DNA from: Escherichia coli
Lineage (GTDB): Bacteria > Pseudomonadota > Gammaproteobacteria > Enterobacterales > Enterobacteriaceae
DNA: 64,000 bases
NCBI RefSeq assembly: GCF_024223415.1
Contig: NZ_CP100500.1
Direction: 5' to 3' (one strand)
The position numbers and the translations under genes are program-made. Below are positions 391 through 2,425 of this stretch, in pieces (the stretch's first letter is position 1; the number at the start of each line of letters is the position of its first letter). A model generated the notes under the pieces. The model saw nothing but the letters and a program-made list of their open reading frames with translations, ran no database searches and was not told where the DNA came from.

Positions 391-804
391 TCAGATGGTT
401 TTCAGTATGCGATCGATGTTGCCGTCATCGACCGGGTTTCTGCCATCGTATGCCATGCCAGCTGATACGGCTTTCGGGCTGTGCATGTCCATAAAGTTTT
501 CAAAGGCTGAAGTAAGCTGTGGTGCAACCTTCGGGCGTTCCTGCTCTATGGTCATGCTAAGGATGCTTTTAGCCGTACCAACATCGATACAAGGCACGTT
601 AGCCATTGCACGTAACAGCGGCTGGTAGTCGTCAGATTCATGAAGCGCCATAATCGCATCAGCGCGCTGCTTGTCCTGTTCTTCCAGTTTGTTTAGTCGG
701 TGTATGGCCTCGTAGGTTGATAAACCTCTGTCAGCCATTGCCCGCGCTTCGGCTTTAAATTTACTCGCCAGCGGTAGCGTCATGATACTTTCATTCGTTG
801 CCAT
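391..804 (-). CDS. Hypothetical protein (137 aa), last gene of capsid operon
   Basis: ORF closely following the gpD-like gene on the same strand; protein-like composition; no family recognised from memory. Confidence 0.45.
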   Translation of the reverse strand: MATNESIMTLPLASKFKAEARAMADRGLSTYEAIHRLNKLEEQDKQRADAIMALHESDDYQPLLRAMANVPCIDVGTAKSILSMTIEQERPKVAPQLTSAFENFMDMHSPKAVSAGMAYDGRNPVDDGNIDRILKTI

Positions 805-816
805 CGTTCCCCCTGC

Positions 817-1152
817 TTATCGGGCCAGCGGCTGAACGGATACGCCGGAACCCGCAAAGGCGGCGCATTTTTTCGCATCGGTGTCGACGCTGTCAGGCCA
901 GTTAACGGCGGCAATATTGAATATCCCCGTTTTGTAACACTGTGCTGATTTCTGCTTTGACGTGTCCACGGGGTGCGAAGTCAGATAAACAGCTTTGCCA
1001 GATTCCTGACCATCCCACGCCTTAAACTCGCCATTGTCTGCCAGCATCAGCGGGGTAAATTCCTGAATAACGCCAGCATCAGCGGCAAAATGTACCAGCG
1101 TCGTGGATACCTGCTGGCTGCCTGCAAATAACTCAATATATGGAGCGTCCAT
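817..1152 (-). CDS. Head decoration protein, lambda gpD-like (111 aa)
   Basis: Length and motifs (TPLMLxD, KxWDG, KxAFAG) match my recollection of lambda gpD; adjacent to the gpE-like gene. Confidence 0.7.
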   Translation of the reverse strand: MDAPYIELFAGSQQVSTTLVHFAADAGVIQEFTPLMLADNGEFKAWDGQESGKAVYLTSHPVDTSKQKSAQCYKTGIFNIAAVNWPDSVDTDAKKCAAFAGSGVSVQPLAR

Positions 1153-1163
1153 AGAATCCCCCG

Positions 1164-2219
1164 TTAAGCAATTTTGACGGTAACAAATTTGCGAATATCT
1201 GCCGGTACCGGCTGCGGTGCGCTGTGCGTCTGCACGTACTCAATCGCCGGATCGCCGTCCTCAATCCAGTTTTTCGGGTAGTACATGTTTTGCGTTGCGC
1301 CCGTTCTTACCGCTTCCTGATCCATAATCGCACCATATGCCACAAGCCCTTTATTGTTGGTGTTACCCAGGACAAGCAAATCAGGCTCAAGGAAATATTT
1401 TTCGGTGCCGTCGCTGTCAGTGTATTTGCCGGAATAGACGATAAGGGCCAGATCACCAAGATAGCCTTTAAAGCTCACCACTTCGCCCAGGTTTTTACAG
1501 GCCAGCTCGGCGGCGGATTCTGAGCCACGGTAAAGATCGTACAGTTCACGGAATTTTTTAAAGCTGCGTAATGTGCGCCATGCCTCACCGCCCATAATCA
1601 TGACGTTGGCGGGGCAACCTGCCTGATCAGCATAAAGCTCGATGTCATAGATTGGGTCGTGCATGTCTTTATCCTGCTGGGACCATTTTTTACCACTGGC
1701 CTGCTGTATGATGCAGTTTTCCGGTATTTTCCAGTCGATTTCATAGCGTTCTATGCCTTCGCCCTCAATGATGTTTTTTCCGGTCGTTACCGCATTCACC
1801 GCCAGCCATTCCACGCGCGCCTTAATGGCGTTTATCTGGCGGCGCATGTTGCCAGTAATCAGGCGCATACGGCGGTAAGTTGGATCGTTAAGCTGTGCCG
1901 GATCTTCTCCAGCCATGCGCATGATGGTCTTTGTTGGATCGATTTCGTGCTTTGGCTTCATGTAGCCTGGTTTAATCGTGCTGGTTTCGTACCCTTTATC
2001 GCGCTGGACCTGACTACCCACCATAGGAGAACAGAACGCTGACATCGTAACCTCTTCAATGTCCAGGGTGTCCAGCATGATGTTTTGGGTGTTGAAGGTC
2101 GCCACGTTCGGGAAAAACAGCGTGGTAAACAGCGGACTAAATTTAAATTCCGAAATATCCCCGCGATTCAGGTACGCGAAAAGCTGGTTAGTTGTAAGTG
2201 CCGTTGCTTTGCCTGTCAT
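1164..2219 (-). CDS. Major capsid protein, lambda gpE-like (351 aa)
   Basis: Translation aligns along its length with remembered lambda gpE: FKFxPLF, PGYxKPKHE, EDPxxLxDPxYRRxR, YKGxxGDxAxxVYSG, VLGNT, YPKNW, GDPA, QSAP, EFVxV. Confidence 0.85.
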   Translation of the reverse strand: MTGKATALTTNQLFAYLNRGDISEFKFSPLFTTLFFPNVATFNTQNIMLDTLDIEEVTMSAFCSPMVGSQVQRDKGYETSTIKPGYMKPKHEIDPTKTIMRMAGEDPAQLNDPTYRRMRLITGNMRRQINAIKARVEWLAVNAVTTGKNIIEGEGIERYEIDWKIPENCIIQQASGKKWSQQDKDMHDPIYDIELYADQAGCPANVMIMGGEAWRTLRSFKKFRELYDLYRGSESAAELACKNLGEVVSFKGYLGDLALIVYSGKYTDSDGTEKYFLEPDLLVLGNTNNKGLVAYGAIMDQEAVRTGATQNMYYPKNWIEDGDPAIEYVQTHSAPQPVPADIRKFVTVKIA

Positions 2220-2425
2220 TATTCACCTCCGTGAACCTGATTGATACCCAGCGCCGCACGTAAATAGGTACGCACCTGCCAGCCTGTTGACGGCTCAACC
2301 ATCGCCAGCGGATCAAGTCCTGCCGCAATGCCTGCTTTTACATTCTGCTGGTGGCGTTCCTTGAGCGCCTCCACGATGTCGGGGCTTATGTAGACCGTCA
2401 CCCCGCCTTTTTTCTCTTCTGCCAT
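2219..2425 (-). CDS. Hypothetical protein (68 aa), first gene of capsid operon
   Basis: Its TAA stop shares one base with the capsid ATG (TAATG), suggesting translational coupling; no family recognised. Confidence 0.4.
   Translation of the reverse strand: MAEEKKGGVTVYISPDIVEALKERHQQNVKAGIAAGLDPLAMVEPSTGWQVRTYLRAALGINQVHGGE

Follow-up and report, generated by a model that had tools for sequence, protein, structure and literature searches.

A capsid and decoration operon with a putative Nu3-type mini-scaffold in an EcCICFT073-family phage-inducible chromosomal island of Escherichia coli

The phage-inducible chromosomal island (PICI) EcCICFT073 is mobilized by the phages lambda and phi80 and by CFT073 prophage 4 (PMC6092414). 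Its induction, replication and high-frequency transfer by helpers are known from the literature, for EcCICFT073 only (PMC6092414). The supplement to that work lists the genes c1498, c1499 (capsid), c1500 (decoration) and the unnamed c1501, with products of 68, 351, 111 and 137 aa, respectively, and the capsid and decoration homologues of this island were pointed out in 2018 (PMC6092414). Here we analyzed a stretch of 64,000 nucleotides of Escherichia coli DNA (NCBI RefSeq assembly GCF_024223415.1, contig NZ_CP100500.1; hereafter the window), near the start of which four tightly packed open reading frames (ORFs) of 68, 351, 111 and 137 aa form an operon on the minus strand (positions 391–2425). 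It is near certain that this operon, which matches c1498–c1501, represents the late (“adaptable”) module of a Gram-negative PICI of the EcCICFT073 family. Both the element and its genes for capsid and decoration proteins have been described before, and the finding itself is not new. The new contribution of this analysis is the assignment of the 137-aa protein to the Nu3 scaffold family, and the residual interest of the locus lies in that assignment and in the unexplained conservation of the module.

The whole window is matched at 100% by the chromosome of E. coli strain 135, whose RefSeq annotation was used for the locus, and the start of the window falls inside an ~11.2-kb PICI of that strain. 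The operon reads orf68-E-D-orf137, with the capsid gene (E) ahead of the decoration gene (D), and shares with c1498–c1501 (CFT073 loci C_RS07005–07020; PMC6092414; PMC6739421) all four genes and their order, at 93.6% nucleotide and 91–95% amino acid identity. The resemblance extends to the leader, the flanking terminators, the adjoining lambda-type cos site and the layout int-alpA-rep-ssb-perC. The two islands differ in their integrase and attachment (att) site (roxA/phoQ in EcCICFT073, tRNA-Pro by yejM here), in their replication gene (a D5-type primase there, a RepA-type helicase here) and in an extra ProQ/FinO gene that stands between perC and the operon in the window. In addition, rppA is cut here to its last 22 codons, and the operon-side cos has a cos2-type cosB. 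An original prediction, made from the letters of the window, had proposed the four ORFs, and all were found at exactly the positions claimed (Table 1). It had also described coupled, overlapping start and stop codons, which holds for the junction of the 68-aa and capsid genes (TAATG); the other two junctions are gaps of 11–12 nt with good ribosome-binding sites of their own. NCBIfam gave no match for any of the four proteins.

Homology searches in Pfam, PHROG and the PDB bear out the gpE-like and gpD-like identities that had been predicted, with the HK97-fold capsid and decoration families as the outcome. The 351-aa protein matches Phage_cap_E (PF03864, E = 1.9e-50) and phrog_29 (3.5e-109) over the full length of the family and is 43% identical to lambda gpE, likewise over its full length. 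It is near-identical to the crystal structure of a “putative capsid protein of prophage” (PDB 3BQW, 351-aa chain, E = 5.8e-229), which we take to derive from CFT073. Profile and solved relative together place it in the lambda gpE family (PF03864, HK97 fold). Among 50,697 phage records the best counterpart is only 47% identical, which marks this as an old, maintained satellite lineage rather than a recent capture. The 111-aa protein matches HDPD (PF02924, 2.1e-17) and phrog_49 and is 36% identical to gpD. Its closest solved relative is SHP of phage 21 (1TD0, 4.6e-13), and the full-length profile and solved-structure matches assign it to the gpD/SHP family. SHP of phage 21 can stand in for gpD on lambda heads, which means that a decoration protein this divergent may still bind a related lattice.

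The 68-aa and 137-aa proteins had been put forward as possible scaffold, FI or head-completion proteins, and this is supported for the larger of the two. The 137-aa protein (orf137) matches phrog_53 (head maturation protease) at 9.1e-8, at positions 494–566 of the 583 of the profile, that is at its C-terminal end. A tblastn search found Nu3 of the lambdoid phage PhiR12_2_star (1e-3), and phmmer against 1.84 billion proteins found the Nu3-like protein P0041 (6.9e-6), which itself matches lambda Nu3 at 2e-16. Family-against-family comparison of orf137 and Nu3 with hhalign gave a probability of 95.5% (E = 1.6e-8). The protein comprises two copies of the Nu3 repeat and the tail motif F-E-x-F-M-x-x-H-S-P-x-A-V-x-x-G common to phage C/Nu3 proteins, its C-terminus reading FENFMDMHSPKAVSAG; the homology covers the C-terminal ~90 residues including this motif and places orf137, by sequence, with the Nu3/gpC C-terminal domains. 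It thus looks like a truncated scaffold-domain protein of the Nu3/gpC type. The family is very narrow, as an exhaustive search returned 9 proteins only; a word-indexed search returned close E. coli relatives only. The AlphaFold2 model (predicted local distance difference test, pLDDT, 39–61 over the homologous region) was too weak for a fold search, so sequence profiles are the sole basis of the assignment. No link between Nu3 and PICIs was found in the papers searched.

The first gene of the operon, orf68, belongs to phrog_3255 (8.7e-36), to which no function is assigned there, and had no match in Pfam, the PDB or a tblastn search of phages. No similarity to lambda head proteins was detected, hhalign against 11 lambda left-arm proteins (Nu1 to U) giving probabilities of at most 2%. 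It is equal in length to lambda gpW, yet unrelated to it. The AlphaFold2 model (pLDDT 76) shows an extended N-terminus and two helices. Foldseek searches of the PDB and BFVD returned nothing significant, and a few ribbon-helix-helix names at E > 0.5 were treated as no evidence. Homologues of orf68 in Salmonella and Edwardsiella always stand directly upstream of the capsid gene.

The order E-then-D had been described as the reverse of that in lambda, and comparison with lambda, PhiR12, a lambdoid prophage of Edwardsiella and vB_EcoM-569R10 (a myovirus with lambda-like head genes), all of which read C/Nu3-D-E, bears this out. Relative to the Nu3-D-E region of lambda, which the operon resembles in its capsid, its decoration protein and the Nu3 C-terminal domain, the order here is E-D-Nu3', W, B, the C protease, FI and FII are missing, the scaffold is cut to 137 aa and an unrelated 68-aa gene leads. 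Annotation and PHROG scans found no lysis, tail, portal, protease or terminase genes in the whole island, in agreement with the claim of a mobile element that lacks portal and terminase in this operon. A canonical head cluster continuing outside the window was looked for as well and not found: between yejO and the start of the window, the chromosome of strain 135 has nothing but the att site, a 93-aa gene and a second cos. We consider it near certain that the operon encodes three lambda-type head shell parts (capsid, decoration and short scaffold) and no vertex or packaging machinery. A lambda-type shell requires just this set, apart from portal, protease and the machinery for packaging.

Relative to CFT073, the ratio of nonsynonymous to synonymous substitution rates (dN/dS) is 0.15 for orf68, 0.08 for the capsid gene, 0.19 for the decoration gene and 0.32 for orf137, at dS values of 0.12–0.30. 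These ratios show that purifying selection acts on each of the four. Of 5,426 complete E. coli genomes, 591 (~11%) carry the operon at full length. A metagenomic contig carries all six genes of the late zone, with the order orf68-E-D, and a PICI of Edwardsiella tarda (GCA_053360915.1, locus L005, 1–20213) with int, AlpA and a D5-type primase reads orf70-E-D, so that the E-then-D module is conserved as far as this genus. The Edwardsiella island holds no homologue of orf137. It sits inside the portal gene of a lambdoid prophage, which it splits into halves of 286 and 257 aa, and the prophage itself reads C-D-E. This is clearly a helper-embedded PICI, of the kind described before in a survey that also recorded capsid genes in 21 of 29 reference Gram-negative PICIs (PMC10111431), with a module of the orf68-E-D type; the island in the window differs in being chromosomal, at a tRNA gene, and not inside a helper. 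Records of ~20-kb “phages” with an E-type capsid (vB_EcoM-569R10) were considered as further satellites and rejected, since they are ordinary partial myovirus records in the order C-D-E.

These data bear on the possibility that the operon is a functionless remnant, its late genes, once taken from a helper or inherited from a capsid-forming ancestor, now being mere passengers. The late zones of PICIs do capture helper late genes (PMC10111431), and transfer is not lost when the module is deleted. However, the selection data largely refute this explanation, the four ORFs having stayed intact at low dN/dS in spite of their synonymous divergence. The module is also intact in about a ninth of the E. 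coli genomes and across genera, at less than 48% identity to any phage counterpart, and its promoter and ribosome-binding sites are conserved. We therefore regard a remnant as very improbable.

A promoter leader had been predicted ahead of the operon. A consensus scan of the leader found no sigma-70 promoter, but inspection by eye revealed a conserved TATAAT with a weak −35 element (Table 1). In an alignment of E. coli, metagenomic and Edwardsiella leaders, the −10 element TA(T/A)AAT, the upstream TGCAA-type repeats and the ribosome-binding-site region are invariant amid diverged flanks, from which we infer an activator-dependent promoter. That the PerC-family protein is a candidate activator of this weak late promoter is speculation. 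Between the −10 element and the ribosome-binding site lies a terminator-like hairpin with a U-run (−15.9 kcal/mol, z −3.8). The corresponding hairpin is stronger in CFT073 (−19.1, z −5.2) and is absent from locus L004 and from Edwardsiella, and it is thus specific to this lineage. Antitermination of the Q type, prompted by this leader terminator, was given little weight because the hairpin is not kept in the more distant islands. The terminators that had been predicted on both sides of the operon were recovered by folding, a pair behind the ProQ/FinO gene and a single one behind the 137-aa gene. Near-identical 30-nt terminator hairpins (AAAAAAGCCGGATTNCTCCGGC..., a direct repeat, 90% identical) bracket the operon at 362–391 and 2636–2665.

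The lambda-type cos behind the operon occupies the position of EcCICFT073 cos1, but its cosB is of the cos2 type. A second, inverted lambda-like cos lies just outside the window, at 19463–19540 of the strain 135 locus (L001). Next to the operon-side cos, three repeats of CCGGACAT form candidate cosB R elements, and these 3 of the 5 matches to the motif in 64 kb fall within 97 bp. Their motif is similar to CFT073 cos2 and to the cosB given for the natural helper prophage phi4 (TCCGACATG; supplement of PMC6092414), which hints that a small terminase subunit (TerS) of the phi4 type could recognize this cos directly, without Rpp. Compared with CFT073, the segment between the cos sites (including L001 19463–19800) is rearranged, and it contains the cos2-type cosB in an inverted copy. 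Of RppA, a 144-aa protein in CFT073 that matches RppC (PDB 6HLK) at 5e-31, only the last 22 codons are left in this island (window 33–98, minus strand), which has thus lost rpp, the gene for TerS retargeting by which E. coli PICIs of the cos type are defined. The 93-aa gene was considered as Rpp and rejected, since its product matched nothing in the PDB and RppA proper is the CFT073 protein of 144 aa. The lambdoid helper proposed in the original prediction is borne out by the lambda-like cosQ and cosN sequences and by the helpers of the close relative EcCICFT073.

The explanation that we favor, with a confidence slightly short of even, is that the operon is a PICI late module whose shell products feed the head assembly of a helper. 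The underlying mechanism, entry of the operon products into the helper's own assembly line, we put forward more tentatively. The operon would be transcribed from its own weak activator-dependent promoter, insulated by terminators, and would probably be switched on once a lambdoid helper has reached its late phase. With its own mini-scaffold as a guide, the capsid protein of the satellite would polymerize or co-polymerize on the helper portal; the gpC protease of the helper would mature the shell, the satellite decoration protein would stabilize it after expansion, and the helper terminase would fill the shells from the cos directly behind the operon. Such shells would probably be of full size and hold about four copies of the 11.2-kb island (4 × 11.25 kb = ~45 kb). 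The benefit would be conditional, with extra or backup shell subunits available when the supply from the helper is limiting, interrupted or poorly matched, and this would account for the fact that laboratory experiments with lambda and phi80 succeed without the module.

Several points weigh against this explanation. The presence of satellite proteins in particles is a proposal from the genes, and co-assembly would have to join capsid proteins that are only 43–47% identical to each other. The mini-scaffold orf137 is without the first ~110 residues of Nu3, and with rpp lost this island may not be a fully competent satellite. Deletion of c1499 or c1500 left the transfer of EcCICFT073 unchanged (3.8e3 and 8.7e3 against 8e3 transductants/ml; PMC6092414). 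Moreover, a synthetic island in which c1498–c1501 had been swapped for cas9 was still delivered by phi80 delta-cos, in a study that terms this region an “adaptable module.” The shell proteins of the helper therefore suffice, and any contribution of the operon is not essential.

Capsid redirection or size remodeling of a lambdoid helper had been suggested in the original prediction; the capsid protein and the short Nu3-like scaffold would force the assembly of small, one-copy (11-kb) shells that exclude the helper genome. SaPIbov5 Ccm and SaPI1 CpmB act by size redirection, and some satellites use short scaffolds to alter capsid size. These proteins and P4 Psu resemble the operon products as satellite copies or mimics of helper shell parts. 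The analogy is one of function, with no sequence relationship, and makes a CpmB-like logic possible for orf137, a shortened scaffold that keeps the Nu3/gpC C-terminal motif of the helper, and a Psu-like one for the decoration protein. Small capsids are indeed made by PmCI172, a Gram-negative PICI that has a capsid homologue (PMC6092414; PMC6893505). With lambda as helper, however, all packaged DNA of EcCICFT073, with its closely similar operon, was phage-sized, no PICI-monomer band appeared after induction of CFT073, and the authors took size redirection as ruled out (PMC6092414). The c1499 and c1500 deletions were without effect, and interference is fully explained by RppA. The genome size of cos islands must also be an exact fraction of that of the helper (PMC10530653), a rule that fits the packaging of multimers, 4 × 11.25 kb, in full-size heads. 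Size redirection is thus plausible by analogy only and is not supported for the helpers tested, and we consider it unlikely.

The design of the published strains is relevant here. By their names, the c1499::cat and c1501::tetA islands carry the marker inside the operon, and it was in the tetA-marked one that the mutants for interference and transfer were constructed (PMC6092414). The intact operon may therefore never have been assayed, and few helpers were tested. From CFT073, the c1499::cat island was transferred 25- to 100-fold better than the c1501::tetA island (1–3.6e5 against 3.4–8e3 transductants/ml; PMC6092414, Table 1), a difference that might stem from the marker or might be a genuine consequence of which gene, c1499 or c1501, is disrupted.

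A further reading, to which we likewise give a low probability, takes the operon as a minimal, self-consistent “shell kit” and the family as an intermediate form: classical PICIs steal whole heads, and capsid-forming PICIs (cf-PICIs) steal tails only. With natural phi4-type helpers, shells of satellite protein would then form on the helper portal, possibly with another size. Such particles would have been missed earlier because the markers, by name, lie inside c1499 and c1501 and because most mechanistic work was done with lambda and phi80. Like the cf-PICIs (e.g., EcCIEDL933), as a preprint describes them, the island encodes its own capsid protein; there, all proteins for small capsids are encoded, whereas here there are the shell, decoration and mini-scaffold proteins only (bioRxiv 10.1101/2022.09.08.507074). 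No portal, protease, head-tail connectors, terminase subunit or HNH gene of the cf-PICI kind was found in the island.

Alternatively, the shell proteins could serve in interference or defense, as poison subunits or decoys against particular competing lambdoid phages beyond the helpers tested. Conservation under purifying selection in a module that transfer does not require is a pattern typical of conditional anti-phage cargo, and the mini-scaffold could be a competitor of phage C/Nu3 in binding the capsid protein. Deletion of c1499 or c1500, however, did not restore lambda plaques or relieve interference (PMC6092414). When the genes behind the ori were cloned singly, only c1503 (rppA) inhibited lambda; phi80 behaved similarly and HK97 was insensitive to c1503. 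The PADLOC defense models had no match among the four operon proteins and three other island proteins. This role appears improbable, less so than that of a remnant.

The puzzle is that ~11% of complete E. coli genomes keep a strongly constrained set of capsid, decoration and scaffold-like genes that laboratory helpers do not need. The view of c1501 as a Nu3-type mini-scaffold makes this conservation testable, and the answer would show whether satellites proceed stepwise from “stealing heads” to “building heads.”

The island lies between yejO and tRNA-Pro/yejM, with a 10-nt att core, GGCACGAGAG, at both ends, ~11.25 kb apart. All its genes are on the minus strand, consistent with unidirectional transcription, and comprise the integrase, the AlpA-like helix-turn-helix (HTH) protein, an Icd-like ORF, a DUF4222 gene, the RepA-type helicase, a single-stranded DNA-binding protein (SSB), the PerC-like and ProQ/FinO genes, the four operon genes and the 93-aa gene, which sits just beyond the window edge on the strain 135 chromosome. 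It shows the features of PICIs of the EcCICFT073 type: a small island in the 10–20 kb range, inserted at a specific chromosomal site and bearing att repeats and an integrase at its end, an AlpA-type regulator after int, its own replication protein with an ori just downstream, and helper-type cos for packaging, in the form of two inverted lambda-like cosQ/cosN sites. The window from 10.5 to 64 kb is ordinary core chromosome.

Table 1. Features of the island in the window (positions in the 64,000-nt stretch).
Feature	Position	Strand	Basis or remarks
Candidate cosB R elements	183..279		three CCGGACAT repeats, one of them inverted relative to the other two
Lambda-type cos	285..364	-	cosQ-like GGGTCCTTTCCGG; cosN GGGCGTCGACCT at 329..318; immediately after operon; local alignment to lambda cos junction
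Intrinsic terminator ending operon	362..386	-	after 137-aa gene; −19.1 kcal/mol, z −3.5
orf137 (= c1501), 137 aa	391..804	-	homologue of the Nu3/gpC C-terminal (scaffold) domain, truncated
Head decoration protein, gpD/SHP family (= c1500), 111 aa	817..1152	-	Pfam, PHROG and PDB matches (see text)
Major capsid protein, lambda gpE family (= c1499), 351 aa	1164..2219	-	Pfam, PHROG and PDB matches (see text)
orf68 (= c1498), 68 aa	2219..2425	-	small conserved protein, first operon gene; stop overlaps capsid start
Leader hairpin and U-run, terminator-like	2449..2478	-	folding (see text)
Putative activator-dependent promoter	2482..2540	-	−10 TATAAT 2487..2482; weak −35 TTGCGC 2509..2504; 16-nt spacer; TGCAA-type repeats upstream; by eye
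Two tandem intrinsic terminators	2585..2662	-	end ProQ/FinO transcript, upstream of operon; folding z −3.4 and −4.7
Island remainder	2684..10496	-	RefSeq annotation of the 100%-identical strain 135 locus, PHROG matches
ProQ/FinO gene	2684-3268	-	strain 135 annotation
PerC-like gene	3348-3668	-	annotation; matches PHROGs labelled “transcriptional activator”
SSB gene	3686-4096	-	annotation/PHROG
ori iterons	4335-4548		three TTTTnCTCCCCACTTTTT iterons, ~84-bp spacing, immediately 3' of replication gene
RepA-type helicase/primase	4546-5961	-	phrog_2850, phrog_906
DUF4222 gene	between RepA-type gene and Icd-like ORF	-	annotation
Icd-like/Bro-type ORF, 595 aa	6455-8242	-	repressor-type domain (residues 188–246) and uncharacterised C-terminal domain
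AlpA-like HTH, 68 aa	8257-8463	-	phrog_66/2790 “excisionase and transcriptional regulator”
Integrase	8960-10201	-	terminal, adjoins tRNA-Pro
tRNA-Pro	10420-10496	-	tRNA detection

Further differences from EcCICFT073 were seen in the remainder of the island. The ProQ/FinO gene, which encodes an RNA chaperone domain and stands between the PerC-like gene and the operon, is found neither in EcCICFT073 nor in most of 599 related loci, and looks like cargo or a regulator specific to this island variant. The PerC-family gene is directly upstream of the late operon in CFT073 and one gene further upstream here. In place of the Icd-like ORF, CFT073 has several small ORFs, and this zone equals the variable “Bro zone” of PICIs. 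Outside the island, cirA (the catecholate siderophore and colicin receptor; window ~49823–51894) is marked as frameshifted in the RefSeq record of strain 135.

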